DNA of 45,691 bases from Candidatus Nomurabacteria bacterium (GTDB lineage Bacteria > Patescibacteriota > Minisyncoccia > Phycocordibacterales > UBA5272), in NCBI GenBank assembly GCA_028286645.1, contig JAQBRF010000004.1, positions 157,501 through 203,191 of the forward strand. Reading direction: 5' to 3'. The notes beneath the pieces were generated by a model. The model was not told the origin of the DNA, made no database searches, and saw only the letters and a program-made list of their open reading frames with translations. The translations under genes were made by a program, and so were the position numbers. Position 1 is the first letter of the stretch. The number at the start of each line of letters is the position of its first letter. Shown here one piece after another: positions 2,705 through 30,568 of this stretch.

Positions 2705-2708
2705 AGTT

Positions 2709-7294: not shown

Positions 7295-7348
7295 GATTTC
7301 TCCCATTGAACAGTCTTTTAATCTTATATTATATTTTTGAATTGTAAA

Positions 7349-7374
7349 TAAAAAAATCCGCGGCGAACCGCGGA
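7349..7374 (-). terminator. Intrinsic terminator
   Basis: tccgcgg...ccgcgga plus U-tract on minus strand. Confidence 0.75.
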
Positions 7375-7379
7375 CGGAG

Positions 7380-7940
7380 TCACTTTGCTTCCTGATTTTT
7401 GTTTGCCCAGTAATCCACCAGCGGATTACCATGGTGATACGGGCATGCTGGGCCTTGACTTGCAGGCTGAGGAAAAAGTGTTTTATGTATTCCCCATACC
7501 ACCAGTTCTTTTGGCTCGTTATATAGTACCACCCGGAAAAGGCTCATTCCCCTTACTACGCTGCTCGTCTCCCCTTCGAAATGCACTTCGAATTGATCTT
7601 CGTTTTCAGGCTCGTTTTTCAGAGCAATCTGATCAATCCTGAGCGCCCGCCTGTTCCGCCGTGTTTTTTTCCAGAGGCTATTAATCAGCCCGTGGTATTT
7701 CTCGGTGAGAGCAATGTTTCCATTCCGGCGAATGTACCGGTCATACGAGACATCGGGGAAAAACAGCAGGTTTTTGATGCCCATTTCCCGTAAAACCCCT
7801 TGGATTTCTTCAATGCTCTGCTCCTTAAGATCGATTCTCCTTTTTGTTAATTTGCTATTTATTGGTGCGGTTATCATAGAAAAACCGCTCTCTTCGTTCT
7901 CTCCTACCTCACCTCGCTCGCGTTCGGTCATTGTTCCCAT
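7380..7940 (-). CDS. ORFan cassette protein, probable distant paralogue of 6899-7294 (start uncertain)
   Basis: TTGCAG-N16-TAAGCT upstream; shared segment IDLKEQSIEEIQGVLREMGI. Confidence 0.6.
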   Translation of the reverse strand: MGTMTERERGEVGENEESGFSMITAPINSKLTKRRIDLKEQSIEEIQGVLREMGIKNLLFFPDVSYDRYIRRNGNIALTEKYHGLINSLWKKTRRNRRALRIDQIALKNEPENEDQFEVHFEGETSSVVRGMSLFRVVLYNEPKELVVWGIHKTLFPQPASQGPACPYHHGNPLVDYWANKNQEAK

Positions 7941-8043
7941 CGTGTTCCCCGTTTCTATTCGGTTAGTCAGTAGCCTCACCTGCACACCCTACTTTAGCTT
8001 ATAACTTTTATAAAATTCTGCAAATATAAGTTTTCCACCGTCA

Positions 8044-12637: not shown

Positions 12638-13039
12638 TCATTGCTTCCTCCTTATCGTGAAATACACCTCCCAATTTTCGCATTGATGTGCTCTCGCGTG
12701 GAAGATCAGATGAAATTGTGGATGATTTTCTACCTGCATCCAGTAAATGACGTTATAGATTGTGTTCAGCAATTGAACGCGTGACCGATCTAGATCTTTT
12801 TCTTCCTCCGTTTTATTTCCAGGGAATTCAACTTTGAAATTCAGCCGGATTATTTCCATTGCGATGGCCTGGAGTCTTGGCGTCAAATGAAGAGATGCTA
12901 CAATTCGTCGCCCCATCATTTGCTCCAGTTGAGCCCTCCTCATCCTCAGAAGAATATTGGGCATTGGGTAATCCTTCGTCTGCTCCAACATGGAACTGAG
13001 AGATTTGAAGTTCTTGATCTTGCTTATAATATCAGCCAT
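12638..13039 (-). CDS. ORFan cassette protein (start re-assigned to MADIIS)
   Basis: AAGGAG 6 nt before ATG; TTGGCA-N17-TAGGAT (13099-13071); terminator cggagc/gctccg near 12601-12632. Confidence 0.7.
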   Translation of the reverse strand: MADIISKIKNFKSLSSMLEQTKDYPMPNILLRMRRAQLEQMMGRRIVASLHLTPRLQAIAMEIIRLNFKVEFPGNKTEEEKDLDRSRVQLLNTIYNVIYWMQVENHPQFHLIFHARAHQCENWEVYFTIRRKQ

Positions 13040-13166
13040 CTGGTGCTCCTTGTGCAGTTCTTCATAGTCTATCCTACTTCTAAATACTAAGTTTGCCAAC
13101 TAGCTTGATAATTTAAAAAACTAGACTATAATAATTTGGCAGCTTTGTTAATCATGGGAGGATATC

Positions 13167-13313
13167 ATCGCACGCCACAGCTATATCCCGCCGCCGCGCA
13201 AGCAGAAGCGCCGTGACAGGTTGAACAGGAATCGCAGAAAGGAAGAAAGGCAAAACGGCCTGCCCGGCCGTCGGCGGCACCAGGAATCGGAGGACGAAGT
13301 GGCAAAGAGCTGA
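13167..13313 (+). CDS. Putative 48-aa Arg/Lys-rich protein with ATC start
   Basis: TTGATA-N16-TATAAT (13105-13132), GGAGG 5 nt before ATC, terminator downstream. Confidence 0.45.
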   Translation: MARHSYIPPPRKQKRRDRLNRNRRKEERQNGLPGRRRHQESEDEVAKS

Positions 13314-13375
13314 TGTCCATGTGATTCCCGCGCTGGTCTTTCATGAAGTTCCTGTGTTTAAAATTCTTTAGGAGA

Positions 13376-13408
13376 AACAAAAGGAGCCCCGCAAGGCTCC
13401 CGTTTTTT
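13376..13408. terminator. Bidirectional intrinsic terminator
   Basis: A-rich flank, ggagcc-ccgcaa-ggctcc, T-tract. Confidence 0.75.
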
Positions 13409-13425
13409 ATCCCTCCGTATTATTC

Positions 13426-13899
13426 TTACTGGCTGGTTTCGGTGAGGTGGGGCTTTTCTTTGCAGTCGGTCTGGTCGTGCAGTTCTTCGAGGGTGGTGTA
13501 AGCCCACTCGCGCTCTTCATCTTCGACGACGAAAATCATGTTGTCTCTCCAGCTGCACGTGGGGCAGTAGCCGAAGAGGCGCGCCTCCCCTTCTTCGAGA
13601 GGGCGCTGGTACCCAAACGCCAACAGGTGGCCGACGAATGTCGCCGCTGCGATTACTTCAGAACCGTGTTGGGGAAGTCGCAGCTTTATGCCTTCGATCT
13701 CGTAATGACCCCACTCTGGACTGAAGGTGAGTCTGAGATCGTCCATGGTGTACCGGGACGGCAGGAACTTCCCGTTATCTTGCTTTACCCATTCCATGAC
13801 TTCAGCGACACTGCACAGAATGCGTACGGTCTCCTTTCCTTCCGGAGAGACGTGTTCATTCCTTTTCCAATCGATTTCATCGAAAGATTTTATGGCCAC
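13426..13899 (-). CDS. ORFan cassette protein with CPTC...H...C putative metal site
   Basis: AAGGAGG 5 nt before GTG; TTGACA-N17-TAGTAT (13958-13930). Confidence 0.75.
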   Translation of the reverse strand: MAIKSFDEIDWKRNEHVSPEGKETVRILCSVAEVMEWVKQDNGKFLPSRYTMDDLRLTFSPEWGHYEIEGIKLRLPQHGSEVIAAATFVGHLLAFGYQRPLEEGEARLFGYCPTCSWRDNMIFVVEDEEREWAYTTLEELHDQTDCKEKPHLTETSQ

Positions 13900-13954
13900 G
13901 ATGGCCTCCTTGGGAACGTATCGTCTTCTATACTACAATACTATATAGAGCGTG

Positions 13955-15364
13955 TCAATTACACCAAGCCATTCCTAAGTAAGGCACTGCCACTCGCCTC
14001 TTGGCACTTTCGCCGAAGAGTATGACCCCTCTTCTTTCGGGGACCTTCTCTTTTCCTCCTACATGGCGCGGATCTGTAACTGCATTAAATGATGAACCAA
14101 GGAAGACCGTGTTCTTCCCGAACTTCTGTGTTACTAGGTCTAGATTTTTATAAAGATTCTGTAATCCTATCTTTCTGCAAATATTTCCAAATAAATCGAG
14201 CTGTTCTACTTTTTTTGTCTCAAGTTTGGTTAGCCACACTCCAGTCGCTCTATAATCTGTATGGGGCTTATATATCTTTGTGAAATTTGTCGCAGCTTCT
14301 CTGATTATGTCTATTGGATTATTGGTCGAATCTCGTAGCTTTACTTCGACTGTGTGATATCCGAAGTCTTGAGTTTTAAGAAATATAGCAATTGAGTTTA
14401 TGAGAAGATCTTCTTTTCTGGCTCGCGATACTGCTTCTTCTATATTTTTAGAAAGCTGAGAGAAAAGGAAAGCTTTATCTTGGCTAGGAGGAGTAAATGT
14501 CTTTGTCGTAGAAATGCTTTTATGCTTTTCCTTTGTGACATTTACTTCCCATACGGATTCGCCATTTAATTCCATCCACATTTCCTGCATTGGCTTGTAA
14601 AAGACTTTCTCAACTGTTGTCTTTTGCATGCGAGCGATTTCTATTGCATTTTGAATATGCATTTTATTAAGTCTCTCAGTGGTCTTTTTCCCTATATTCC
14701 ATATCTTTCGTACTGGAGTTAATTTTAAATACTTTTCTATATCTGCTTTTGATATGACGGTCATTCCATGAGGCTTCTTCCACCCGCTTCCTAGCTTGGC
14801 TATTACCTTTGTGGGACCGAGTCCGACACTGAAGCTCACGCCAAGCTCTTTGTATAAATCATTGCTTATTCTTTCCGCGATCCCTTTATAAGTTAATCTA
14901 TGAAATCTCTGCAGTCCGGTGATGTCTGCGAAGCATTCATCAATTGAGTATTCTTCTACTACTGAGGTGTAGCGTCGCACTATAGAATACATTCTCTTTG
15001 AATATATCGTATATGTTTCATAGTCTCCCGGCACTACTATCACTTCCGGAAATTTCTTTTTTATTTCCCATACTGGCATAGCGCGCGTTATGCCCAAGCG
15101 TTTTGCTTCTATACTGATGGACGTCGCTATTCCTCTTTCCGCTCCGGTTACTATTGGTTTGCCGCGAAGGTTTTTATTTTGCGCTTGCTCGACAGACGCG
15201 AAGAATGAATCGCCGTCTATATGAAGAATAGCTTTTGGGAAAAGACTCGCAGAGTTAGATATGGATTCTATTAAGGATGGAGTTTGAATGATTGCGACTC
15301 TCTTAGGGTCTGTAGTTGATAGCAGATTCTTTTTGTCTAGCTGAGTGAATGTGATTGTGTTCAT
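13955..15364 (-). CDS. dinB: Y-family DNA polymerase (DinB/UmuC-like)
   Basis: HIDGDSFFASVE, YSIDE, AKLGS..KKPHG, QLDLF clamp-binding-like motif. Confidence 0.9.
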   Translation of the reverse strand: MNTITFTQLDKKNLLSTTDPKRVAIIQTPSLIESISNSASLFPKAILHIDGDSFFASVEQAQNKNLRGKPIVTGAERGIATSISIEAKRLGITRAMPVWEIKKKFPEVIVVPGDYETYTIYSKRMYSIVRRYTSVVEEYSIDECFADITGLQRFHRLTYKGIAERISNDLYKELGVSFSVGLGPTKVIAKLGSGWKKPHGMTVISKADIEKYLKLTPVRKIWNIGKKTTERLNKMHIQNAIEIARMQKTTVEKVFYKPMQEMWMELNGESVWEVNVTKEKHKSISTTKTFTPPSQDKAFLFSQLSKNIEEAVSRARKEDLLINSIAIFLKTQDFGYHTVEVKLRDSTNNPIDIIREAATNFTKIYKPHTDYRATGVWLTKLETKKVEQLDLFGNICRKIGLQNLYKNLDLVTQKFGKNTVFLGSSFNAVTDPRHVGGKEKVPERRGVILFGESAKRRVAVPYLGMAWCN

Positions 15365-15382
15365 GGTGATTGTTTTATTAGT

Positions 15383-15943
15383 TTATTTATATTTCCTAAT
15401 GACTGCTTTTAATACTGCTTCTATCTTTAGGGTTTCGGGTTTGGGATATATTTTCCGGAATTTTCTGTTTGCGGGCACAAGAACTGGGTTTCCATTTTCT
15501 AGTTCTAGGTATTTAAGCGTATATTCGTTTTCGACGAGTGCGAGTACGATGTCCCCTCTTACGGCTCTCTTTCCCCTCTCTACCAGCACCAGATCTCCTT
15601 CCATTATTCCCGCGTCCTTCATGCTTTCGCCCCTTACTTCAAGCATGTATGTCGATTCTTTTCTTTCTATTAAAAACTCATCTAGGGACATCAGGTCAGA
15701 TACGTCTTCATCAGATGGTGATGGGAATCCTGCTTGTACGGTTCCTAATCTCATTACTGTTCCGGTCTGAGTGAGTGATAATTTGTTCCCAGTTTTTTCT
15801 AGGATTCCTTCTTCTATCATCTTCCGGACTCTGTAAGCCACTGTGTTCTTCGAGGAGACATTAAAGAGGCTGCACATCTCTTCGTATGTCGGCATCCTCT
15901 TAAATTTATTAAAAAAGTTATTTAGTATTTCGCTGTCTTTCAT
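15383..15943 (-). CDS. lexA: LexA-type repressor with UmuD-like S24 domain
   Basis: N-terminal HTH (MPTYEEMC...SSKNTV), VQAGFPSP cleavage site, GESM Ser and TLK Lys. Confidence 0.85.
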   Translation of the reverse strand: MKDSEILNNFFNKFKRMPTYEEMCSLFNVSSKNTVAYRVRKMIEEGILEKTGNKLSLTQTGTVMRLGTVQAGFPSPSDEDVSDLMSLDEFLIERKESTYMLEVRGESMKDAGIMEGDLVLVERGKRAVRGDIVLALVENEYTLKYLELENGNPVLVPANRKFRKIYPKPETLKIEAVLKAVIRKYK

Positions 15944-15952
15944 GTATTTTAG

Positions 15953-15978
15953 TGTATTAGAACAAACGTTCTAATACA
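15953..15978. promoter_or_regulatory. SOS-box-like operator overlapping lexA promoter
   Basis: Perfect IR TGTATTAGAAC-N4-GTTCTAATACA with GAAC-N4-GTTC core, inside minus-strand TTGTAT-N17-TACACT. Confidence 0.85.
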
Positions 15979-16003
15979 AGGAAAAAGAGTGGATAAACAT
16001 ACG

Positions 16004-16038
16004 GTTATTAGAAATTGGTTATTAGTAATTAGAAAATG
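16004..16038. repeat. 7-nt period micro-array
   Basis: gttatta gaaattg gttatta gtaatta gaaaatg. Confidence 0.7.
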
Positions 16039-16196
16039 GTGGATTCTCAATACTATTTCCAGAATGGGAGTTGACGGAGTTTAAACTTCTTCTTGTGGTT
16101 TGGGTCGTTGACAAATCGTAGTGATTATTATAATGTAAATATAATTGCTGTTTTGATTATTAACTTTTGCGCAGTGCGCAAAGAAAGGTAAAGAAG

Positions 16197-16640
16197 ATGT
16201 CAGATCATCAGTTGGCACTTACCGCACTCGCGTTCGGACTCCTGATCATCGTGTCTCATTACGTGTACGCCGCGAGCTTACTCGTGAAGCTTTCTCAAGA
16301 GCCTGAGAACATTCTCGGGAACTGCTGGAACAGCACATTCTCCTACATGCTCGTATGGTTCGGCGGTCCGACGATGATGGCTGCCAGCTTGCCCTTCTGG
16401 TATCTTGAGGTGTTGAACCATACGGCGCGTACCGTCGAGCAGTTGTTTGTAATCGCGCTCGCCAGTCTCTGGGCTGGGTACCTACTAACGCTTCCCATCA
16501 TTCGCGTGATAGTTCTGGTCGCATTCCCGGGGACGCGGTTCCGCAGGTGGTATTCTCTGAAGATTCTGTATCTCGGAGAATCTCTCCTCGACCAAATGCA
16601 CAGAGAGATTCAAGTCCTCCGTAGACGTGCGCGCCTTTAA
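16197..16640 (+). CDS. Array cassette A, 3-TM membrane ORFan
   Basis: TTGACA at 16108, AAAGG before ATG 16197, terminator 16672-16705. Confidence 0.75.
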   Translation: MSDHQLALTALAFGLLIIVSHYVYAASLLVKLSQEPENILGNCWNSTFSYMLVWFGGPTMMAASLPFWYLEVLNHTARTVEQLFVIALASLWAGYLLTLPIIRVIVLVAFPGTRFRRWYSLKILYLGESLLDQMHREIQVLRRRARL

Positions 16641-16752
16641 TCCGTTCCCCAATTCTTTCCACCTCAACCAAGTCCCCGCACTCGCTGCGGGGGCATTTTT
16701 TATTTAGATTATAATTACACCCAACTTTAAGTTTTTTCAGTATTTAGTATCA

Positions 16753-16781
16753 TTGACAGCACCATCTATTTATGGTATACT
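16753..16781 (+). promoter_or_regulatory. Sigma70-type promoter
   Basis: TTGACA-N17-TATACT with TG extension. Confidence 0.85.
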
Positions 16782-16815
16782 ATAATAGTCTCGTTCTATA
16801 CATAAAGGTTACATT

Positions 16816-17175
16816 ATGGAATATAAGCTTTGGGAGCCCATGCCTCCAGCATTCGGAGAGGCCTCACCCGAGGTCGCAATCCTCGGTGGCACTGTATTCC
16901 TCGTCATAATCGTTCTTTCGTTCATGGCGGCTGCCTGGGTTACCGTGCGGCCGTCGGACCTGGAAGATGACCAGGACGACGAAACTACGCTCGATCGAAT
17001 GCATGGCGAGCTGAAGACGTTCGTGCGGCAGTACAAAAAGTGCCGTGCAGCGTTCGGGATATTCGCCAGCCAGTTCGACGATCTGGACGGATTCGCATGG
17101 TTCATCGCGAACCTGTTCATCTGGACGTATGTCCTCGACCCTCATCATCGCACCGTCTTCGAGTATCTGTTCTGA
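16816..17175 (+). CDS. Array cassette B, membrane ORFan
   Basis: Own promoter, AAAGG, terminator cgtcccgca/tgcggggcg plus T-tract at 17196-17230. Confidence 0.75.
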   Translation: MEYKLWEPMPPAFGEASPEVAILGGTVFLVIIVLSFMAAAWVTVRPSDLEDDQDDETTLDRMHGELKTFVRQYKKCRAAFGIFASQFDDLDGFAWFIANLFIWTYVLDPHHRTVFEYLF

Positions 17176-17301
17176 AGTGTCCTTCAACCTCAACTCGTCC
17201 CGCACTCACACTGCGGGGCGGTTTTTTATTTGACACAAACATTAAATTAGAGGAGGATTAAACTGAATTCCTATTAACGCAACATTAGTGAGGAAACCTG
17301 T

Positions 17302-18249
17302 ATGGCTATGAACAAGCTCGAGTCCAGCCCCTTGGTTCATTTCGAATCTAGGGACCGCCGCTTGCCTGAATGGTTCCGCTTAGGCTTCAGCTTCGGGACT
17401 GACGGCCCCGATCCTCTTCCCCCGCAAATCATTCTTGCGGTCGAGAAGTCCGCGCTAGTTCACTTTATGGAGGATATCGAAAGGAACACTCTCGTTAAAT
17501 ACGCAGGTGAGCACTTGACTCATCGGAACGCCAGTGCTGAATTTCTCACCGATATTCGCGAGCCGTGGGGCTTCGGTGGGATTCTCAAGCCTTATGCCCC
17601 TGCCGAGCCGAATGACTTTCTCCACTTCGCGATCAATATTCCGCGGGTAGAGAAAGAAGCCGGGTTTTGCCGAGATTGCGAGGGTACGGGAAAGGATCAG
17701 ATCACCGGTCAAGGAACCTGTCATCGTTGCAACGGAAGTAAGAAGGAAACGAAGCAGGATCAAAGCGAACTCAACATGATTTCGGCGACGCTTTGTGCGA
17801 TCCATCCGCTTCTAGAACGGCCATACGAAGTATGGCTGCGCGATGTGAAGGATGTGGGGCGCCCACAGCTCCTTTCACTCATCACGAGCTTCGGACCTCA
17901 ATGCCCGTTTATTGCGGTGGTTTTCTCCCCTGAGGTTGTCGGCTTTCTAGCCCGAAATGCAGGGCGCACTCTGCCGCAAATAGAGAGCGCCATGTGGAAG
18001 ACATACATTCAAATGGTGCCGGGTTATGAAAGGTACGGGCCCTATGGCTTTGAAGCGTCGGTCGATCGTGAAGGATGTCCGAGTTTCAGTGTTTCGCGCG
18101 ACGCCCTAATGTCCGTGAGCGGGTTTCGGCAGCCTTCGAGCAGGGATAGGATGAAATTTGATTCGACCGAAGTGATGAGCTACCATCAGCAAGTTTCACT
18201 TCTCGCCGGCATTGCCATGCTTTGCGATATGGTGAAAACCACTCGATAA
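17302..18249 (+). CDS. Array cassette C, ORFan with DnaJ-type zinc-finger motifs
   Basis: CRDCEGTG...CHRCNGS; TTGACA at 17230; terminator 18287-18310. Confidence 0.8.
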   Translation: MAMNKLESSPLVHFESRDRRLPEWFRLGFSFGTDGPDPLPPQIILAVEKSALVHFMEDIERNTLVKYAGEHLTHRNASAEFLTDIREPWGFGGILKPYAPAEPNDFLHFAINIPRVEKEAGFCRDCEGTGKDQITGQGTCHRCNGSKKETKQDQSELNMISATLCAIHPLLERPYEVWLRDVKDVGRPQLLSLITSFGPQCPFIAVVFSPEVVGFLARNAGRTLPQIESAMWKTYIQMVPGYERYGPYGFEASVDREGCPSFSVSRDALMSVSGFRQPSSRDRMKFDSTEVMSYHQQVSLLAGIAMLCDMVKTTR

Positions 18250-18346
18250 CTCGGAGCGAACGCTCTTCTTAACTTCAACCTTTTACACCCCGCCTCGGTG
18301 GGGTTTTTATTTTATTTAAATCTTTTTCATTTCATTTTTTTGAAAT

Positions 18347-18532
18347 AAAAAAGCAAACCTGATTGGTCTGCGATAATGGCAGCGGATAGATAAGGAGCGG
18401 TATCTCACTGGTGGCTCCCCGAGGACTGGCGTCCCTGAAACACGATTAACTGTGTCCCCATGATATGCGTATATTCTGCATCTCATCGTTTCAATGCCTC
18501 CCGCCTATTCTGCACAAATCTATCCGCCGCCG
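18347..18532 (-). ncRNA. Rod-like structured RNA of about 185 nt (6S-like candidate)
   Basis: 14-bp closing stem 18378-18391/18518-18531 (G-U only on minus strand), TG-n-TATTAT -10, terminator gcagacc/ggtttgc-U6. Confidence 0.65.
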
Positions 18533-18653
18533 ATTTAAATAATAACACATTCTTACAATTGCATATTTTTATTTAATAGTTGACTAAACACTATAATTAT
18601 TGTAGTTTAGAAGTAAAGTGATTTCGGTCATACTAAAACCATAGGGAGTTCTC

Positions 18654-19145
18654 ATGTTGAATCGAAAGGCTGTTCGCCGAATGATTGTTCTTGGCGCGAT
18701 AGTAGGGTTTTCCGCTTTTTTCTATCCTGAGACGAAAGATATGGTAGAGAGAAAGCAGGACGGATACCTCGTCCCTTTCGCTCAAGCCGCTGTAAGGAAC
18801 GTGATTACCACAGTATCTTTCGCGCGAGATGGTGACGAGATGGGTGATGCCATGCGCATGTGCAGTAATACTCCACATGAATATCACGTAAACGCACAAA
18901 GCTTCTGGATCACGTGCAGCGTGTCCGCGGATTTCTACCGCACGCTTTCATCTTCGGACGTCGAAGGCGGGCCGGCTCTAGAGGTTATCCAGACCACTCG
19001 TCTGCAGTTAAAAGACGGAGCAGTTCTCATCGCTCTTGGTTACAAAGTGAAGAACATCTTCGTCATCGCTCAAGCGTGGAGGCAGAAGCTCGACGAAGAT
19101 GTGATGCGAGGAGAAATCTCACGCGTTGAGAAATTCGTCCCATAG
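18654..19145 (+). CDS. Array cassette D, membrane-anchored or secreted ORFan
   Basis: TTGACT-N17-TAGTTT (18580-18608), AGGGAG, terminator gccccg/cggggc-T. Confidence 0.78.
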   Translation: MLNRKAVRRMIVLGAIVGFSAFFYPETKDMVERKQDGYLVPFAQAAVRNVITTVSFARDGDEMGDAMRMCSNTPHEYHVNAQSFWITCSVSADFYRTLSSSDVEGGPALEVIQTTRLQLKDGAVLIALGYKVKNIFVIAQAWRQKLDEDVMRGEISRVEKFVP

Positions 19146-19285
19146 GAGCCTTTTCACACCCCTTTCGCCCCGCGCGATCGGGGCTTTTTTATATTTATCA
19201 AAACCTTTCCTAAATGAAAATAGATTTGACATATAATCTTTTATATAAGAGTATAGAAAACGTACTCTCACCTACGGAGAAGAAC

Positions 19286-19459
19286 GTGGAAACTGCGACT
19301 GTGAAATACCATGTAGTGGTCCAACAAACGGGCGCCGGCTCATGGGCGCATCTGAAAGACAATAAGGAAGTGGGAGCCCACGGACGCAACCAAAACGAAG
19401 CCGTCGGGGCAATGGTGACAGCGTACCCGAATATCTTCTCCGTTATTGTGGAGAAATAA
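19286..19459 (+). CDS. Array cassette E, 57-aa HicB/UPF0150-like protein
   Basis: GGAG 6 nt before GTG 19286; TTGACA at 19226 lies in the longer annotated ORF; YHVVV..GSWAH..AHGRNQNEAV pattern. Confidence 0.6.
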   Translation: METATVKYHVVVQQTGAGSWAHLKDNKEVGAHGRNQNEAVGAMVTAYPNIFSVIVEK

Positions 19460-19605
19460 TGGCGGAAGTGAATCGCTTCTTCACCGTTATCCGCTTAAGG
19501 CTGCCCTAACCCGGCGGTTTTTATTTGCTTGACTTAGTTTTATATTAATTACAAAATGTAAGAGATTCAAGTTCTAAACCTTTTAAACATTGTGAAGGAA
19601 AGATT

Positions 19606-20070
19606 ATGGCGAAGAATCCTCTTGCTAAGGCCACGGAAGATCTGATCAATGCCGCGGAAGAAAAAGGCGCAGATAGGAAAAAGTTCAAAAGAGCCCTGCT
19701 GCTGTTTCTGATGGAGAATTTCTCGAAGGAAGTCATCGTCGACGTTATGCTAGCCTTCAGTCCCCAGATGCTGGATTCTGTTTCCAAAACATCCCCGCCG
19801 TCTCGGCTGCTTGATACGGATATAGCTCTCCATCCGGTCTTAAATGAAGTCCTGTATGGCCAAGGGTTGGACACTCGAATTGAGAATCAGTGCCGCGCTG
19901 AAGGTATGGAGCGGACAGGAGATCTGGTCGTAAGGTCTTCAAAAATTCCCAACTTAGGAAGACGGTCATATCAGAAAATTGACGACTTGCTGGCTGTTCG
20001 AGGTCTCAAGCGTGGTATGGATGTCCTGGGCTGGCAGTCAAAACCCCTTCAGTCGGGAAGCCCCACCTGA
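19606..20070 (+). CDS. Array cassette F, stand-alone RNA polymerase alpha-CTD-like protein
   Basis: LDTRIENQCRAEGMERTGDLV...IPNLGRRSYQKIDDLLAVRGLKRGM aligns by eye with RpoA C-terminus; TTGACT-N17-CAAAAT. Confidence 0.8.
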   Translation: MAKNPLAKATEDLINAAEEKGADRKKFKRALLLFLMENFSKEVIVDVMLAFSPQMLDSVSKTSPPSRLLDTDIALHPVLNEVLYGQGLDTRIENQCRAEGMERTGDLVVRSSKIPNLGRRSYQKIDDLLAVRGLKRGMDVLGWQSKPLQSGSPT

Positions 20071-20182
20071 TTCGCCCCCGATAGAAATAGCTTCACCTCG
20101 CTTCTCGGCGGGGATTTTTTTGACAAGCATAAGAAAAAAATGCAAGATGTAAGTCAAGCTCATAATTGAAAGGCGTAGTGCT

Positions 20183-20524
20183 ATGTCCAGCTCTTTGTAT
20201 GAACCGAATTTTGGAGAGGCATTCTATCCGTTTTACCAGGAGAGGATCCTCGAAGCTCTTAGGAAGCTTCCAGATGATAGCCCGGCACACGAGCGTGAGA
20301 CGCAGCTCCGGCTGATCGCTCAAGTTCAGCTGCATTTGGAGACCGACCGCAAGGTGTATGTCAACAGCGCGATGGGATCTAGAATTTCCCGTCAAGTGGG
20401 TCAGGATCTGGAGAATATCTGGAGTCAAATCAAAGTTGAGCAACTTGCGGGTTTCTCGGATGAGCAGATGAAGCTCTATCAGACCTTGGACTCAATGGTT
20501 CGTACTCTGTTGGTTTACAAATAA
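20183..20524 (+). CDS. Array cassette G, helical ORFan
   Basis: TTGACA-N17-CAAGAT (20120-20148), terminator ccgtcgc-gaaa-gcggcgg. Confidence 0.75.
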   Translation: MSSSLYEPNFGEAFYPFYQERILEALRKLPDDSPAHERETQLRLIAQVQLHLETDRKVYVNSAMGSRISRQVGQDLENIWSQIKVEQLAGFSDEQMKLYQTLDSMVRTLLVYK

Positions 20525-20627
20525 GTCCTCCTCACTTAACCCGTCGCGAAAGCGGCGGATTTTTATTTGACACTTATATTATAAAAAAGTAGGCTAAACT
20601 AAATTCCCACCACTGGAGGTCGTCATC

Positions 20628-20918
20628 ATGACTTCGCTTGAGCAAGTTGTTGCGGAAGAAAGAAAACGGCTGGAAGCCGAGTTCCCGAAATTCTTGGCGG
20701 ACATCAATGGGTCCCAAGATTATTACTCTATGTATGTATTGGCTCAGGCTCTTGTAAAGGCCAAAAAAGGAGAAGCACAAGCTGCAATTGTCGGAGAAGT
20801 CAAAGACTTCGATGGCACAAGCCGCACCATCACAGTGGAAGAAGAACGGCGACTGTGGCGGTTAGCTAACACCTTGTCCGGTGAGTCGATGGTTCAGTCT
20901 CATATCGACTTTTTATGA
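20628..20918 (+). CDS. Array cassette H, ORFan
   Basis: TTGACA-N17-TAGGCT (20567-20595), GGAGG, terminator acccgc/gcgggt. Confidence 0.75.
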   Translation: MTSLEQVVAEERKRLEAEFPKFLADINGSQDYYSMYVLAQALVKAKKGEAQAAIVGEVKDFDGTSRTITVEEERRLWRLANTLSGESMVQSHIDFL

Positions 20919-21029
20919 ATCCCGTTCGCTCGATTACCCGCTTCACGGCGGGTTTGTTTTTGCCCTGTAACCTAAGCAAAAGTTGGTAACAGAACTTATC
21001 CTATATAATGCTCTGCTTTGATATAGGCT

Positions 21030-21635
21030 TTATTCATTTACCAACTTCGCATATACAACCAATCTCTTGCTGTAGGTTTTTTTTAATTGGTTCCATACTC
21101 CAGCACATGTAATAAGATTTAGCCGAGACCCGTTATTTCCATTAAATATTTCCTCAGTCGGCGCATTATCATATGGATATGTTTCTGTTTTTTCTACTTT
21201 AAAATGGAGTTTAGTTCCATCATTTCTTGTTATGTATACATCATCCCCTTCCTTTAATAACTTTAAATTTTTAAACACCCCGCTAATAGCCAATGCATTA
21301 TCAAGATGTCCCGCGATCACGGCGCTCCCATTAAATCCCGGAGCGGTGCCATATTTGTACCATCCTACATCTTTAAAGTTTCCAGGTGTTGCCATATTTC
21401 CATCTTTTGTAACCCCTACATACTTAACTGTCGTGTCTATATTTAAAGATGGTATTTGAATTGACTTTGGAAGTTCAGTTTCTGCGTATTCATATTTAAT
21501 TACTTGTGGCGGGGTATTTATTTCTAAGTCGCTTGTTACGCGGTCATAAGTTTTATAGGAGTATAGAAAAAAAACACCGAGGGCTATGATAATGATAATT
21601 ACTATTAATTTGTCAGTTTTTCTTCTTAATTTCAT
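21030..21635 (-). CDS. Class F sortase
   Basis: N-terminal TM, VGWY, PG..GSAVIAGHLD, LNLITCAG, RLVVYA. Confidence 0.9.
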   Translation of the reverse strand: MKLRRKTDKLIVIIIIIALGVFFLYSYKTYDRVTSDLEINTPPQVIKYEYAETELPKSIQIPSLNIDTTVKYVGVTKDGNMATPGNFKDVGWYKYGTAPGFNGSAVIAGHLDNALAISGVFKNLKLLKEGDDVYITRNDGTKLHFKVEKTETYPYDNAPTEEIFNGNNGSRLNLITCAGVWNQLKKTYSKRLVVYAKLVNE

Positions 21636-21649
21636 AAATGTATTTATTC

Positions 21650-21680
21650 TAGAAAGCGTACCTCTAAGGTACGCTTTCTA
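21650..21680. terminator. 13-bp hairpin between substrate and sortase genes
   Basis: tagaaagcgtacc-tctaa-ggtacgctttcta. Confidence 0.6.
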
Positions 21681-21696
21681 TTAAAACACATTTAGC

Positions 21697-22443
21697 TTAT
21701 TTAGTTGAGTAGTTTCTCTTTAGAAGATAAACTCCGCTACCGATAACTGCAAGTGAGGCTAGTAGGAATGCTGTATTTAGCAATCCATCTCCCGATCCTG
21801 TATTTGGAAGTCCTGGAGTTGTTCCTGGATCAGTTGTTCCAGTTCCTGTTGTAGCTCCTGTTCCACCTGTGAAAGCAACCGTTCCTGAGGTCATGGCTGC
21901 TGATCCCGTTGAAGTCGTTCCTGTTGTAGGAGAAATAGCTCCTCCTGCACTAGTTGTTACGGAATTAGGAACGAAGCTTGATGGAAGTACAGAGACAGTT
22001 ATAGTTCCTGTAGGAGAAACATCTGCTGTAACGTTACATACTAGAGAAACATTTGTACTGGTTCCATTACCAACCACTAGTGGAGTATCTAGAACGAAAA
22101 TATTTGTTCCGTTTAGAAGTCCTACTAGTACGTTATTTCCTGTCGTCAGCGAAGCGCCAGTTCCGGTATTTACTATTCTACAATTTTCAAGCGAGCTTGC
22201 ATTGGCTCCTCCTCCGAAGCTGACTGCTACTGGAATGGAAGCTATACGAGCTGTGTCGCCTGCTGTACCTGTTGCGCTTAGATTAATATTTGCAATTGCA
22301 ACATTAGTAGAACCTGCTGCAACTGATGCGGGAGTGGTCATACCAACTCCTAGTCCGCTTGCAACTTGAGCAAATGATAAACCTGGGATAGCTACTATGG
22401 CTGCTATCGCGAGGCTTAGAGAAACTTTATTTCTTAATTTCAT
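21697..22443 (-). CDS. Secreted Gly/Thr-rich surface protein with LPXTG sorting signal
   Basis: Signal peptide; C-terminal LPNTG + TM + KR tail; adjacent to sortase. Confidence 0.88.
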   Translation of the reverse strand: MKLRNKVSLSLAIAAIVAIPGLSFAQVASGLGVGMTTPASVAAGSTNVAIANINLSATGTAGDTARIASIPVAVSFGGGANASSLENCRIVNTGTGASLTTGNNVLVGLLNGTNIFVLDTPLVVGNGTSTNVSLVCNVTADVSPTGTITVSVLPSSFVPNSVTTSAGGAISPTTGTTSTGSAAMTSGTVAFTGGTGATTGTGTTDPGTTPGLPNTGSGDGLLNTAFLLASLAVIGSGVYLLKRNYSTK

Positions 22444-22610
22444 ATCTGTGGTTATTTAATCTTTATAAATTGACAATTATAATTAGCAATTATTCACTGC
22501 CACATATGTTTTATTCTAATCTGAAAACAAAGTGGCTCTACACTATAAGACGAAGTAAGAAAGATCTATATTACAAAAATATTCTTGACACCCAGTCATT
22601 CTATTGCTTT

Positions 22611-23114
22611 TTATCTAATACCCGTATCAATATCGAAATCAATTGTAGTGGTTGAAGACTGTTCTACAGTTATTTTCTTTTTCTCTCCTCCCCCAATTCC
22701 TGCAGGATTTACTTGTATATAATACGTTCCTGGTTCAATTTCTATAGCGTATGTACCGTCCGGATGAATCTTCCATCTTTCTTTGATTGTAATTTTATCT
22801 GACTCATAAACTAAAACTCTGCGTGATGTATATTCACCCTGTGTTGTAGGACATGGATTCTCAGGTTGCTCCACAGGACAATTAGGACCTATTGTAATTT
22901 TCCCCGTAACATATCCCAAGCTTTTCGCTGTGCTCGAGGATGTATCTAATGAAGTAGTGGCTGTGTTTTCTATAACAGGAGTGCTTGTGCTAGCTATTTC
23001 TACTACAGCAATAGGAGCTCTGGACGGAGTAGTGTTTCTGTCTAGGTATAAGTAAACTCCTCCGATAATAATGAGAAATAATCCACCAAAGACGATCTTG
23101 CCTAATGGGGTCAT
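22611..23114 (-). CDS. Membrane-anchored protein with carboxypeptidase-regulatory-like beta sandwich (start re-assigned to MTPLGK)
   Basis: TM, GPNCPVE..C, DGTYAIEIEPGTYYI; annotated start lies in the IR element. Confidence 0.75.
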   Translation of the reverse strand: MTPLGKIVFGGLFLIIIGGVYLYLDRNTTPSRAPIAVVEIASTSTPVIENTATTSLDTSSSTAKSLGYVTGKITIGPNCPVEQPENPCPTTQGEYTSRRVLVYESDKITIKERWKIHPDGTYAIEIEPGTYYIQVNPAGIGGGEKKKITVEQSSTTTIDFDIDTGIR

Positions 23115-23125
23115 GATTATAATAG

Positions 23126-23234
23126 TATACCCCCATACCAACTTCACACAAGTCTAATGAAGGTAAACAAGAAAATAAATATTTAGATTATTCTATAAAT
23201 ACTTTTCTACTTTTTAAGTTGGTGTGGGGGTATA
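23126..23234. mobile_element. MITE-like inverted-repeat element, copy 2
   Basis: 19-bp IR with one mismatch tatacccccataccaactt / aagttggtgtgggggtata, 71-bp AT-rich interior. Confidence 0.6.
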
Positions 23235-23235
23235 T

Positions 23236-23312
23236 AGTTATTAGTAATTAGTTACTAGGGAAGATTAATAACATAAGGAATTTCTGAGAACTGGAAGCTG
23301 CCAACTGAAAAC
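23236..23312. repeat. Two 7-nt period micro-arrays
   Basis: agttatt agtaatt agttact; ctgagaa ctggaag ctgccaa ctgaaaa. Confidence 0.65.
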
Positions 23313-24196
23313 TATTTTTTTACCATGTACATATCCTGTCCGAAGCCTCCTACGCCAACGAATTCTACGCAGTCATCATTATTCAATATCCATTCATAAG
23401 GGCGGCATCCTTGGCAACCGCCTTCTCGAGTCTTCGGATCGTATGGTCCATTCGGGCAAACAAATACTTTTTCTGGGCCCATTCTGCCGGCTTCCTTCCT
23501 TGCCTCTTTTACTTTATACGCTACATCAAACACATCTTTATGAGCTTTTTCTAAATCTAATAATGGAACTTCTACTAATTTGTCGCTTTCTAAATACCAA
23601 TAGCTAGCACGCGTCACTTTTCTTTTTTGAAGCGCATTACAAAGCAAAAGATAAATGGGCAATTGCAGCGACCCATCTTTCTCTTCATTCTTTCCAGTTT
23701 TGAAATCAATTATATGAAGGGAGTCCGTTTCGGGTAAGTATTCTATCCAGTCCACTAATCCATTTAAAATAATGTTGTGATCCTCGCTTATGTAATAGTT
23801 GCACGGCATTGTGTCGCGCTTTAACTTAATGCATTTTTTCACTAAGAACTTAGGATCTTTTATTACATTTTCGATCATTTTCTTTCCGCGTGCCTTAAAT
23901 TCATTCTCTTCCTCTAAAGAATTAAATCCTCCCATTTTCCCCGAAACCTTTTTCCAGGCTTCTTCATACTTTTTCAGCAAGTCATAACTCATGCGTGTAT
24001 CGGCTGGATAATCACCCAAGCCTTCTAAAACCTCATGCACAGCTACTCCTAAAGCCATGTGAGGATTTACTATAGACATCTTGTGTCCAGTCGCAGGATT
24101 TTTATACATGTTATGTAAATAATACAGTCGCGGGCATTTCAAAAAATCTCCCATGGAGGAGTGTGATACCCATACTGCACTATATTTATCCGCCAT
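23312..24196 (-). CDS. PD-(D/E)XK nuclease, RecB/AddB-like, with putative Fe-S cysteines (start re-assigned to MADKYS)
   Basis: SHS....FLKCPR, G.AVH..LE, GLVD, IIDFKTG, QLPIY, CP...CQGC; TATACT 6 nt before ATG. Confidence 0.88.
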   Translation of the reverse strand: MADKYSAVWVSHSSMGDFLKCPRLYYLHNMYKNPATGHKMSIVNPHMALGVAVHEVLEGLGDYPADTRMSYDLLKKYEEAWKKVSGKMGGFNSLEEENEFKARGKKMIENVIKDPKFLVKKCIKLKRDTMPCNYYISEDHNIILNGLVDWIEYLPETDSLHIIDFKTGKNEEKDGSLQLPIYLLLCNALQKRKVTRASYWYLESDKLVEVPLLDLEKAHKDVFDVAYKVKEARKEAGRMGPEKVFVCPNGPYDPKTREGGCQGCRPYEWILNNDDCVEFVGVGGFGQDMYMVKK

Positions 24197-24289
24197 AGGA
24201 ATAGTATAGTGCAGAATCTCCAATTAACAATTTCTGGTTTACAAAAAAATCTGCTTGACAATCTATTTTGTTAGATGTAGATTATATTT

Positions 24290-24527
24290 GTGATACTGCT
24301 TCGTGGTGGTCTTACGGGACCAGCTTCCGGCTAGGGGTGACGAGCCTCCACAGACACAGCCCCGAGCGATTAGCGGTACCTACTATGTGCTGTTATTTCC
24401 AGGACAGTATCACACTGAATAAATGAATTACTCTCCGCCTAGGCGAGTAACAAATGGACGGACTAATAATCCGTGCCGACCCTCAGGATGTTGCTTCAAG
24501 CTTCATATCGTCCTGAGGGGTTTTTTA
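24290..24527 (+). ncRNA. Structured ncRNA unit 1
   Basis: TTGACA-N17-TAGATT (24255-24283); closing stem gtgatactg/cagtatcac; terminator ccctcagga/tcctgaggg-T6; no ORF. Confidence 0.7.
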
Positions 24528-30405: not shown

Positions 30406-30481
30406 GAAGCGACACGCCATCGCCACAACCCGCCGCGTCCATCAAGGACCGGCGGTTTTTTTATTTTTTAATTTCTTAGTA

Positions 30482-30510
30482 TTGACAAGAACGTATTTGT
30501 ATAGTATAAT
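30482..30510 (+). promoter_or_regulatory. Perfect consensus sigma70 promoter
   Basis: TTGACA-N17-TATAAT. Confidence 0.9.
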
Positions 30511-30568
30511 GCCCTAGAACCCTGCTGTTTGATTTACTCACCTGATTCAATTCTAAAGGAATTCTGAC

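Follow-up and report, generated by a model that had tools for sequence, protein, structure and literature searches.

Morons are described in PMC3594210 as genes with their own promoter and terminator and a deviant GC content, and PMC5635113 reports hotspots without mobile elements in transformable bacteria. For Patescibacteria, PMC12455944 attributes up to 13% of the genome to horizontal gene transfer, mostly between Patescibacteria, and PMC10187176 describes Saccharibacteria as naturally competent. According to PMC11293555, acquired and orphan genes usually have a G+C content at or below that of the host. The window analyzed here is a stretch of 45,691 nucleotides from a tiny soil bacterium with a genome of the Patescibacteria type (862,894 bp, ~0.86 Mb; 1025 ORFs). 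At 16108-20962 it holds eight co-oriented ORFs on the + strand, adjoining lexA. These units share with morons their own promoter, a terminator and a deviant G+C; however, the genes lie about 10-17 points above the host, whereas acquired and orphan genes usually do not exceed it. With modest confidence, the array is interpreted as an islet free of mobility genes, made of eight horizontally acquired transcription units that resemble morons and occupy a hotspot flanked by lexA and a nuclease gene.

Array structure, signals and products

The eight co-oriented monocistronic units described in a sequence-only reading of this DNA were all recovered by ORF, promoter and terminator scans (8/8), and its description of the genes as unrelated is borne out by a paralogue search of the genome, which found none for the array ORFs. 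Every unit has a predicted promoter, an SD-like motif, one ORF and a G+C-rich hairpin with a T-tract. Cassette 1 (16108-16704, +) has the promoter TTGACA-17-TAATGT at 16108-16136, an ORF at 16197-16640 (147 aa, two hydrophobic segments, 53.6% G+C) and a hairpin at 16672-16694 plus T-tract. In cassette 2 (16753-17229, +), the promoter TTGACA-17-TATACT (16753-16781), with a TG before the -10, precedes an ORF at 16816-17175 (119 aa, one hydrophobic segment, 55.6% G+C), and the hairpin is at 17195-17221 plus T-tract. Cassette 3 (17230-18314, +) combines TTGACA-17-GAGGAT at 17230-17258 with a 315-aa ORF at 17302-18249 that contains a central CxxCxGxG-type zinc finger; its hairpin is at 18287-18304 plus T-tract. 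Cassette 4 (18580-19194, +) encodes 163 aa with an N-terminal hydrophobic stretch (18654-19145), downstream of TTGACT-17-TAGTTT at 18580-18608 and ahead of a hairpin at 19167-19184 plus T-tract. The promoter of cassette 5 (19226-19528, +) is TTGACA-17-GAGTAT at 19226-19254 and its hairpin lies at 19497-19521 plus T-tract. Its ORF ends at 19459 and starts at 19214 or 19286; because the promoter sits inside the longest ORF, the likely start is the GTG at 19286, which gives 57 aa with GGAGA 7 nt upstream. Cassette 6 (19529-20119, +) has TTGACT-17-CAAAAT at 19529-19557, an ORF at 19606-20070 (154 aa, alpha-CTD-like at residues about 77-148) and a hairpin at 20096-20113 plus T-tract. Cassette 7 (20120-20566, +) has TTGACA-17-CAAGAT at 20120-20148, a 113-aa ORF at 20183-20524 and a hairpin at 20541-20558 plus T-tract. 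A 116-aa ORF (20093-20443) runs antisense to it, and the promoter and terminator signals favor the + strand. Cassette 8 (20567-20962, +) comprises TTGACA-17-TAGGCT at 20567-20595, a 96-aa ORF at 20628-20918 (47.4% G+C) and a hairpin at 20936-20953 with a T-rich tail.

The 404-nt junction between cassettes 3 and 4 also holds a promoter-like site (18617-18590) and a terminator (hairpin 18371-18353 plus T-tract) on the minus strand. The stretch 18345-18585 (-) between them folds at -73.9 kcal/mol (z -3.1; matched by 1 of 200 shuffles) and has no match in Rfam. It may be a structured RNA or a small gene, a low-confidence assignment.

All eight starts (taking GTG 19286 for cassette 5) are preceded, at a distance of 61-77 nt, by the pattern TTGAC[AT]-17 nt-nAnnnT. 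This pattern occurs 8 times on the + strand of the array and 0 times on the - strand; the genome holds 125 on both strands, so about 0.35 sites are expected per array strand. A stricter promoter scan of 14000-23000 showed no enrichment (12 found vs 15.6 expected) and flagged just 16753 and 19529 inside the array. Two separate terminator scans placed a hairpin plus T-tract after 8/8 array ORFs, with folding energies of -12.4 to -20.2 kcal/mol. One scan gave 18 such sites on both strands of 14000-23000, compared to 8.2 +/- 3.1 in shuffles; the array ORF ends on the + strand account for 8 of these 18. The other scan counted 351 sites across both strands of the 862,894-bp genome. Judging from these sequence signals, the promoters and terminators probably work in the cell. 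RNA polymerase would start at the sigma-70-type promoter of each unit, produce a transcript with a 24-53-nt leader carrying the SD-like motif followed by one small ORF, and stop at the G+C-rich hairpin with its U-tract. Since each unit has its own promoter and terminator, the units would be expressed independently and insulated from each other and from lexA.

The array ORFs have 47-56% G+C compared to 39% for the genome, and a GC3 of 0.49-0.69 compared to a genome median of 0.33. GC1 (0.54 vs 0.46) and GC2 (0.42 vs 0.35) are also raised, thus all three codon positions are shifted. Their proteins contain 1.2% Cys and 6.4% Arg, where random sequence would give 3.1% and 10.8%; in amino-acid usage they are like genuine proteins and unlike random sequence. 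Composition flips at the start codon and the hairpin end of each unit, giving 16 switches across the array: the promoter parts have 24-37% G+C, and the 3' UTR plus hairpin 55-69%.

Two of the products appear to be membrane proteins, one a zinc-finger protein and one a DNA-binding protein of alpha-CTD-like type; the other four are unassigned. Only the cassette 3 protein has relatives, at 24-37% identity. It belongs to a family of roughly 300 aa with a DnaJ-type zinc finger whose members often adjoin grpE-dnaK-dnaJ. The best relative (34% identity) lies between dnaK and dnaJ in a Saccharibacteria MAG of 55% G+C, which also shows terminator-TTGAC junctions. The C-terminal domain of the cassette 6 protein resembles that of the RNA polymerase alpha subunit (NF003513, E 1.9e-6; PDB 1lb2_B, E 9.5e-7). 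The cassette 1 protein had no match in Pfam, PHROGs, PADLOC or NCBIfam, and the Atlas search gave no usable match for cassette 4.

The lexA-nuclease interval and the genome-wide class

The array is divergent from its left anchor, a lexA-like gene for a 186-aa S24 peptidase (15383-15943, -), downstream of which lies a umuC/dinB-like gene (13955-15364). To the right, three minus-strand genes of ambient G+C encode a sortase (21030-21635), a 248-aa surface-type protein (21697-22443) and a 178-aa protein (22611-23147); they are followed by the right conserved anchor, a PD-(D/E)XK (AddB-like) nuclease gene (23312-24223, -). The lexA anchor is kept in 10/10 congener loci at 53-79% identity. Both anchors are present in five of the ten, with intervals of 96, 1549, 3491, 3856 and 5400 bp that contain other genes. 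The interval between lexA and the nuclease gene is a hotspot of gene turnover. A DNA-level search of 40 relatives with a 9.3-kb stretch matched just lexA, and even the closest of the sampled relatives are distant, sharing about 66-73% DNA identity in this gene. Cassettes 1, 2, 7 and 8 each match 0/52 other genomes of the genus, and cassette 4 matches 0/250 other genomes of the order. The array genes are absent from relatives.

The array is the largest cluster among about a hundred such add-on genes; units of its type occur in 116 places across the genome, which has two further arrays of similar kind. With GC-rich defined as GC3 >= 0.48, 165 of the 1025 ORFs fall in this class. A terminator is present at 53% of them compared to 8.7% of the other 860, the promoter pattern at 50/165 (30%) compared to 29/860 (3.4%), and both together at 36 compared to 9. 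A 316-kb congener contig has homologues of 8/165 GC-rich ORFs and of 253/860 others.

For the islet of acquired units, the coding parts and 3' UTRs would have kept the composition of a donor of ~50% G+C. Other Patescibacteria are the most likely donors, and a search found no donor for the array genes. Entry was probably through DNA uptake, with the conserved neighbors as anchors for recombination. Two features speak against transfer. The G+C excess is opposite to that of usual acquired genes, and the near-consensus promoters of host type, present on 30% of the GC-rich ORFs, are not expected on foreign genes.

Junctions and possible stepwise accretion

The sequence-only reading described a terminator T-tract running into the next -35 box, and T-tracts running into TTGAC[AT] were found at 17230, 19529, 20120 and 20567. 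Genome-wide, this arrangement occurs at 16/351 terminators, 4 of the 16 being in the array. A similar joint claimed on the minus strand near 7356 does not hold, as the hairpin at 7373-7358 is followed by TTTACA, not TTGACA. The C/A-rich spacer claimed for every cassette, searched with a pattern chosen post hoc (CT[CT]A[AC]C / TTCA[AC]C / TTCACACC, <=30 nt from the hairpin), occurs near 6/8 array terminators and 7/343 others. The last 25 nt contain 2.4 G in the array, 4.9 in all terminators and 5.6 in those of GC-rich genes. The T-tract abutting the next -35 box may serve as an UP-like A/T tract.

The further proposal that the junction motif is a recombination point is not upheld. Hairpin, U-tract and -35 box account for every conserved piece. 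The claim is also weakened by the shared junction 20-mer GGCGGNTTTTTATTTGACAC, which occurs as a single copy in each of 20 unrelated contigs from metagenomes (31-66% G+C) as well as in one viral contig; none of these 21 contigs encodes an array protein. A search for excised or rejoined cassettes found no alternative joints in the sole run that holds the locus, in which contigs were searched. The motif is best read as transcription punctuation, not as a recombination site.

Of the earlier proposal of a modular accretion array, the modular row of autonomous units stands; accretion itself is weakly supported by the G+C gradient and the variable interval. Stepwise accretion without an integrase would have added or exchanged cassettes singly, using either the junction modules or lexA together with a junction as short stretches of homology, and would have left the newest units next to lexA. 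The fall of G+C (Spearman -0.90) and GC3 (-0.81, exact one-sided p 0.011; both n=8 and post hoc) from cassette 1 to cassette 8 is what amelioration of older units would produce, and suggests more than one acquisition step. GC3 is highest in cassettes 1 and 2, and no two terminators of the array resemble each other more than theirs (71% over 52 nt, ungapped), which form imperfect 52-nt direct repeats of the terminator module at 16654-16705 and 17180-17231, flanking cassette 2 (score 19.5 vs a 99th percentile of 12.5). The array junctions are also more alike than expected; in 0/2000 random sets of eight other GC-rich-gene terminators did the mean score reach that of the array. This likeness exceeds what function alone seems to need, and like the ordered fall in G+C it fits ordered building better than a single block. 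Elsewhere in the genome, an array at C5:437.5-439.6 kb has an exact 68-nt module of terminator, promoter and SD motif on both sides of unrelated genes, several other direct repeats of 30-70 nt surround single ORFs, and 25/414 pairs of spacers around one ORF are more alike than 99% of random pairs (9 exceed the 99.9th percentile). The natural competence described for Saccharibacteria would also fit. However, the sole run holding the locus (contigs only) yielded no variant, joint or circle, and the second array has a gradient of just rho -0.57 (p 0.14). Alike flanking spacers are equally common at AT-rich (19/298) and GC-rich ORFs (6/116), the 20-mer is a generic terminator/-35 junction, and no junction pair of the focal array is identical beyond about 20 nt. 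Accretion of this kind is considered rather unlikely. Some alike spacer pairs sit in tandem paralogue regions.

Less likely origins: element remnant, native genes or assembly artefact

A remnant of a prophage, plasmid or integrative element, in which a moron-rich early or accessory region outlived the mobility and structural genes, is improbable. Small unrelated ORFans with promoter, terminator and deviant G+C are the classical moron picture as given in PMC3594210, and small membrane proteins and an alpha-CTD-like protein are products that would fit such an accessory region. However, profile and collection searches agree with the earlier statement that no integrase, attC or phage genes were recognized. 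Pfam found no recombinase, transposase, integrase, terminase, capsid or replication gene among 30 neighboring ORFs. Tyrosine recombinases (PF00589) occur at just two genome positions, C3:138485 and C5:121402; the closer of them is 52 kb from the array, and no att-like repeats flank the array borders. None of the eight proteins matches PHROGs at E < 0.01, PADLOC gave nothing meaningful, the cassette 3 protein has no match in 50,697 phage records, and the array has no DNA match among 72,556 plasmids. Units of the same kind are also scattered over the 116 genome sites. Matches of the cassette 6 protein in phage records were bacterial rpoA in misfiled records, not phage homologues.

The genes could also be native, fast-evolving and lineage-specific. 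Their high G+C would then have a local cause instead of transfer, for example biased gene conversion in recombination hotspots or selection acting on small, strongly expressed genes; this is quite improbable. The promoters match the host's own type and exceed the average in strength, the genes are mostly orphans with an empty donor search, and 9 other genomes of the genus have members of the cassette 3 family with ambient G+C (C-terminal half matched). However, the G+C shift extends to all three codon positions and to amino-acid usage, and the focal cassette 3 protein has its closer relatives outside the genus: full-length matches there reach E 1e-40 to 1e-30, and the copies within the genus give E 1e-22 or weaker over the C-terminal half only. 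The 316-kb congener contig and 188 kb from ten others contain 0 high-GC3 units with both signals. The GC-rich class also includes recognizable enzymes; among its 20 largest ORFs, 8 have Pfam families, including ThyA, a dCTP deaminase-like protein and a GGDEF response regulator.

An assembly or binning artefact, in which fragments from an organism of higher G+C were joined into a contig of low G+C, can practically be dismissed. The genome was assembled from a metagenome, into 5 contigs with end overlaps of 102-127 nt, but a 29,442-bp Logan contig from a second assembler, which is not independent data because it probably derives from the source sample, covers 13000-24500 and thereby every border with 0 differences at an even depth of 35, the 16 composition switches fall exactly at start codons and hairpin ends, and the pattern recurs at 116 sites.

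Eight gene units beside lexA

The window corresponds to G000:C5:157501-203191, where G000 is the source genome (862,894 bp, 5 contigs, 39% G+C, 98% complete) and C5 is one of its contigs. The array at 16108-20962 is best read as an islet that lies in a gene-turnover hotspot free of mobile elements and consists of eight self-contained, moron-like transcription units gained by horizontal transfer. The array has eight ORFs on the + strand, 57 to 315 codons in size, which are referred to as c1 (lexA side) to c8 (sortase side).

A G+C-rich hairpin with a T-tract lies no more than 80 nt behind each array ORF (8/8), both in a tool scan and in a separate scan of our own. The hairpins have G+C-rich stems of 6-10 bp and loops of 4-7 nt, and the hairpin regions have fold energies of -12.4 to -20.2 kcal/mol. 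The tool scan found 18 terminator sites in 14000-23000, compared with 8.2 +/- 3.1 in shuffles. All eight predicted terminators have the form expected of intrinsic (Rho-independent) terminators.

A strict promoter scan of 14000-23000 returned 12 sites with 15.6 expected, which is no enrichment, and flagged only two sites in the array. The pattern TTGAC[AT], a spacer of exactly 17 nt and nAnnnT is located 61-77 nt before the start codon of all eight ORFs. It occurs eight times on the + strand of the array, zero times on the - strand of the array and 125 times in the genome (both strands). A purine run containing AGG or GGA precedes every array start by 5-15 nt. The promoter of c5 lies inside the longest ORF; therefore, the likely start of this gene is the GTG at 19286, which has GGAGA 7 nt upstream. 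The sequence-only reading had pointed to terminator T-tracts that run into the next -35 box. The four T-tract/TTGAC fusions in the array are real, and the same feature occurs genome-wide at 16 of 351 terminator-like sites, including these four.

The array also differs from its surroundings in composition. Its ORFs have 47-56% G+C, compared with 39% for the genome and 37-40% for the flanking genes, and their GC3 is 0.49-0.69 against a median of 0.33 over all ORFs. The G+C content switches sharply within a unit, with 24-37% in the promoter and leader parts and 55-69% from the stop codon to the end of the hairpin. Signals and codon-position G+C are the sole basis for calling c5, c7 and c8 coding.

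A variable interval and a genome-wide class of GC-rich units

The array is bordered on the left by two genes of the opposite strand, one lexA-like (15383-15943) and one umuC/dinB-like (13955-15364). On the right, a sortase gene and two genes for surface-type proteins, with ambient G+C, are followed by a PD-(D/E)XK nuclease gene (23312-24223) and a gene for a UvrD/PD-(D/E)XK helicase-nuclease of 1113 aa (AddAB-like neighbours). A scan of 30 neighbouring ORFs found no integrase, transposase or phage protein. Tyrosine recombinase (PF00589) matches in the source genome are limited to C3:138485 and C5:121402, the nearer of which is 52 kb from the array. No tRNA genes were found in the window, so a tRNA integration site was dismissed.

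When 13900-23200 (9.3 kb) was compared with 40 relatives at the DNA level, essentially lexA alone matched, with 66-73% identity in 19 of them. Five of the ten loci fetched from congeners, the other genomes of the genus, have both lexA and the nuclease gene. The interval between these anchors measures 96, 1549, 3491, 3856 and 5400 bp in the five loci and holds different ORFs; the array is present in 0/5. Since the gene content differs in all five two-anchor loci, the interval varies while its borders are conserved. One pair of core genes thus encloses different content, as in a hotspot of horizontal gene transfer. Homologues of c1, c2, c7 and c8 were each found in 0/52 other genomes of the genus, and c4 in 0/250 genomes of the order (species representatives in both cases).

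Oliveira, Touchon, Cury and Rocha 2017 (PMC5635113) found that transformable bacteria have more than their share of hotspots that lack mobile elements. The array resembles such hotspots in having variable content between two core genes, in showing no recognisable mobile element and in belonging to a naturally transformable host group; Saccharibacteria are described as naturally competent in two papers (PMC10187176, PMC10633639). The build of one gene, one promoter and one terminator and the common junction style are array features outside that concept.

The source genome also has a genome-wide class of similar units. The GC3 values of 1025 ORFs (our own greedy call of the longest ORFs of at least 60 aa) are bimodal, and 165 ORFs have a GC3 of at least 0.48, a set in which some members are antisense or spurious or possibly lie in RNA genes and in which the antisense ORF of c7 was picked over c7. 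These GC-rich ORFs have a median length of 139 aa, compared with 205 aa for the rest, and span 75,924 bp, or 8.8% of the genome. A terminator is present within 80 nt of 53% of them and 8.7% of the rest. The promoter pattern precedes 50 of the 165 and 29 of the 860 others, and both signals together are found for 36 GC-rich ORFs and 9 other ORFs. The GC-rich ORFs form 116 clusters (85 singles, 21 pairs, 7 triples and one each of 4, 5 and 8), and the cluster of 8 is the lexA array. The bimodal class is visible within the window itself, for example at 6899-7985, 12638-13899 and 29986-31021.

A homologue on a 316-kb congener contig was found for 8 of the 165 GC-rich ORFs and for 253 of the 860 others. 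ORFs that combine high GC3 with the two signals were absent from that contig and from 188 kb of ten other congeners. Pfam families were assigned to 8 of the 20 largest GC-rich ORFs (12/20 had none) and include thymidylate synthase, a dCTP deaminase-like family, GGDEF response regulator, methyltransferase, inositol monophosphatase, bactofilin and HD domain.

Two further arrays have a build like that of the lexA array. The second (C5:28944-34606) has about eight small GC-rich ORFs, each with a terminator. TTGAC follows three of its terminators, and direct repeats of 50-51 nt (~92% identical) link the sites 25782, 29438 and 30348 at this locus (L052). The third (G000:C5:437563-439600, positions 1064-3100 of locus L051) has four small GC-rich cassettes. 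It contains an exact 68-nt module, made up of terminator hairpin, T-tract, TTGCTT promoter and SD, in copies 1154 bp apart that flank unrelated genes on both sides. One further junction in the third array is a hybrid of two module types, and its first cassette encodes a CxxC...CxxC zinc-finger peptide.

The genomes of Patescibacteria are tiny, and their route to new functions is poorly known. About 9% of the source genome (75.9 kb) consists of GC-richer genes, most of which are absent from a congener. These are typically single insulated transcription units placed between core operons, without mobile-element genes, and the lexA array is their clearest example. It is unusual that acquired genes are GC-richer than the host and that they have better promoters than the resident genes. 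In a study of gut prokaryotes, orphan genes are at host G+C and virus-like ones lower (PMC11293555). In Patescibacteria, islands and genes transferred one at a time are numerous and come mostly from within the group (PMC12455944). About 36 units, whose promoters are near consensus and whose terminators are strong, are candidate expression parts for the new Saccharibacteria genetic systems.

Origin of the units

The moron concept reportedly comes from Juhala and Hendrix. The array units resemble phage morons in having their own promoter and terminator signals, a G+C content unlike the surroundings, mostly small proteins without known function, and an insertion between resident genes. Cumby, Davidson and Maxwell 2012 (PMC3594210) likewise attribute to morons, which hold one or a few genes, a promoter and terminator of their own and a deviant G+C. 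In the array the predicted signals accompany 8/8 units and the composition is unlike that of the neighbours. The array differs from phage morons in that it lies outside any phage or prophage, with eight units in tandem in the chromosome, in that some 36 further units, or more, occur elsewhere in the genome, and in that the G+C is above that of the host. What the array adds to the known kinds is moron-like units outside phage, in tandem, in a chromosomal hotspot and as part of a genome-wide class. No description of such arrays in Patescibacteria came up when the full text of open-access papers and preprints was searched by terms.

The alternative that survives best is a stepwise accretion of cassettes mediated by junctions or by an anchor gene, which we consider unlikely. 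The sequence-only reading had suggested that the junction, the terminator of one cassette joined to the promoter of the next, may be a recombination or assembly point. The analysis did not support this suggestion, which is possible but unlikely. Each conserved piece of the junctions appears to be a hairpin, a U-tract, a -35 box, a 17-nt spacer, a -10-like hexamer or an SD, so all of them read as transcription signals. The likeness of the junctions, the repeats and the G+C gradient go beyond that reading. The junctions have a mean local score of 13.5 against 10.5 for random sets of eight terminators from other GC-rich genes, and 0/2000 of those sets were as alike. An imperfect direct repeat of 52 nt flanks c2. 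Genome-wide, when the spacers flanking one ORF were compared, 25/414 pairs reached the 99th percentile of random pairs in likeness and 9 reached the 99.9th; such cases are equally found around AT-rich ORFs, and some are tandem paralogues. The G+C content declines from c1 to c8 (rho -0.90), as does GC3 (rho -0.81, exact one-sided p 0.011), a post hoc test; the second array gave -0.57 (p 0.14).

Two candidate marks of a mobile module were considered. The 20-mer GGCGGNTTTTTATTTGACAC is common to two junctions and occurs as single copies in 20 metagenome contigs (31-66% G+C) and 1 viral contig. These contigs carry no relatives of the array proteins or of the window ORFs m1-m4. Since the 20-mer is single in contigs of very different G+C without array relatives, it is read as a convergent terminator/promoter joint, and it was dismissed as a module mark on the same evidence. 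A G-poor YTYAMC spacer is present at 6/8 array terminators and 7/343 others, with a pattern that was defined post hoc. It was rejected as an attC-like core; it is array-specific, but post hoc and without a complementary partner downstream.

A broader version of accretion is a rather doubtful proposal. It holds that the lineage assembles its accessory genome from promoter-ORF-terminator units by recombinase-free capture, using an anchor gene and junction modules, into polar, age-ordered, integron-like arrays. A unit would join a single ORF to a consensus promoter and a strong terminator. DNA uptake would be followed by recombination, with homology supplied by a conserved anchor and by terminator-promoter modules that are short and alike. 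Preferred sites, the lexA border among them, would receive the units, and the newest and most GC-rich unit would lie beside the anchor. De Vries and Wackernagel reportedly described homology-facilitated illegitimate recombination during natural transformation in 2002. Such recombination would add foreign DNA beside an anchor such as lexA without a site-specific recombinase; for the array it is only a candidate mechanism, and no junction microhomology, donor or intermediate was observed. If recombinase-free capture were true, the array would be a functional analogue of the integron without integrase or attC. Unit-by-unit entry at junctions or anchors would be an unrecognised gene-capture route, and cassette-wise gain and loss at the junctions among strains, if true, would make the array far more interesting.

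Integron cassettes are mostly promoterless and are expressed from a common Pc promoter, and their attC sites are imperfect palindromes of 57-141 nt with R''/L''-L'/R' boxes. A cluster of attC sites lacking an integrase is termed a CALIN, so an integrase is not required next to an array. LexA controls integron integrases. The array is like integron arrays and CALINs in its tandem, co-oriented, short, unrelated orphan genes, its hairpin junctions and its SOS-gene neighbour. It differs in lacking IntI and in its hairpins, which are short, perfect, G+C-rich and followed by T-tracts, and so look like terminators more than like attC sites. The array junctions showed neither long imperfect palindromes nor common core sites. 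The cassettes are also not promoterless, since 8/8 have their own promoter site and terminator.

A decayed phage or plasmid region would account for foreign genes in another way, and is very unlikely. Searches of the array against PHROGs, PADLOC and, by blastn, plasmids gave nothing meaningful, and no phage genes, PHROGs or phage-record matches place it in a phage or prophage. A tblastn search of c3 and c6 against a phage collection was also without meaningful result, and the three matches of c6 are bacterial rpoA.

Native genes that evolve fast are a quite improbable source of the array. Its proteins have 1.2% Cys and 6.4% Arg, compared with the 3.1% and 10.8% expected from random sequence of equal composition, and this make-up is what real proteins would have in a genome of about 50% G+C. 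The reading as de novo or spurious ORFs was rejected on the amino-acid make-up and on the existence of a c3 family.

An assembly artefact has next to no probability, since an independently assembled 29,442-bp contig covers 13000-24500 with zero differences. This contig comes from the one public DNA run, probably the source sample, listed as containing the array stretch (no RNA run was listed). There were no alternative joints at the array among the contigs of that run, a form of data in which rare excised or circular forms are invisible. From two RNA runs belonging to that study came a single 60-nt contig with 33 nt on 18399-18431 (3 differences) and nothing more; no inference on expression was drawn.

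Proteins of the array and minor features

The proteins of note are c3 and c6. A word-based protein search with c3 and c6 matched each to itself alone. An exhaustive HMMER search with c3 found 173 proteins at E <= 0.001, nearly all of 280-320 aa and matching end to end; therefore, blanks of the word-based search carry little weight. An alignment of 39 sequences of the c3 family has four invariant Cys, plus other residues. The protein has two CxxCxGxG-like motifs that resemble the DnaJ zinc finger. It scores 18.1 bits against PF00684, below the gathering threshold of 32.7. Weak matches to this family are present in 17/39 family members (best E 1e-4), and a search with the family profile found DnaJ zinc-finger structures (E 1.8e-4 to 4e-3). 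Membership of c3 in the DnaJ central zinc-finger family was rejected, because the score is below the Pfam cut-off and the motifs are a resemblance only. Unlike DnaJ, c3 lacks a J domain; its own family, of ~300 aa, is separate and has no Pfam model.

The c3 zinc-finger family is repeatedly found beside grpE-dnaK-dnaJ. The best relative of c3 lies between dnaK and dnaJ in a MAG of 55% G+C labelled Candidatus Saccharibacteria in its record. Weaker copies in 9 other genomes of the genus match the C-terminal half only and have ambient G+C, and two of the nine are just upstream of grpE-dnaK. No close relatives were found in metagenome contigs. Family genes adjoin grpE-dnaK-dnaJ in three other genomes (loci L041, L043 and L049). 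In the source genome (G000:C5:143008-146819) the slots before grpE and between dnaK and dnaJ are occupied by other GC-rich ORFs (167 and 178 aa).

The protein c6 (154 aa, 19606-20070) has a significant sequence match to the helix-hairpin-helix domain of the RNA polymerase alpha-CTD. Its residues ~77-148 match PDB 1lb2_B (E 9.5e-7), and 23 alpha-subunit sequences were found at E < 0.01. The match to NCBIfam NF003513 (E 1.9e-6) is far under the whole-RpoA cut-off, and that to Pfam PF03118 (E 0.021) is below the cut-off. The aligned residues R265, N268, N294, G296 and S299 (E. coli numbering), which bind DNA in E. coli, are kept. The protein differs from the alpha-CTD of RNA polymerase in being free-standing with an unrelated N-terminal half. 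The protein could bind A/T-rich UP-type DNA, for example the T-tracts ahead of the array -35 boxes.

The remaining proteins have fewer leads. There are two hydrophobic segments in c1 and one in c2, and for c4, c5, c7 and c8 Pfam, PHROGs, PADLOC and NCBIfam gave no lead. The Atlas had no usable feature match for c4, and its structure rows were disregarded because the model is poor (pLDDT 0.38).

The c3/c4 junction (404 nt) contains a minus-strand promoter-like site and a terminator, bracketing about 240 nt (18345-18585). The bracketed minus-strand segment folds at -73.9 kcal/mol (z -3.1) and is a candidate small RNA or a candidate ninth, inverted unit; it has no Rfam match. The window as a whole has no Rfam family at gathering scores, and a single array match at E <= 1 is at chance level (E 0.22).

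The umuC/dinB-like gene after lexA is full-length (469 aa) in the source genome. In 8 of the 10 congener loci (L011, L012 and L015-L020) only a match of 61-95 aa is left next to lexA, to be read as a remnant or else as a small domain gene. The 14-nt motif GGTTATTAG[A/T]AATT is present in tandem copies just upstream of lexA (16003-16040), about 70 nt ahead of the cassette 1 promoter. It is found at about ten intergenic places, including 23236 in the window, C5:98533, 313640, 481578, 482587, 498516 and 499265, and C3:190441, and it is kept upstream of lexA in relatives. The motif is a candidate operator and possibly the LexA box of the lineage. The contig ends C2/C3, C3/C5 and C4/C5 have exact overlaps of 102, 116 and 127 nt, so the source assembly can probably be joined further at these ends.
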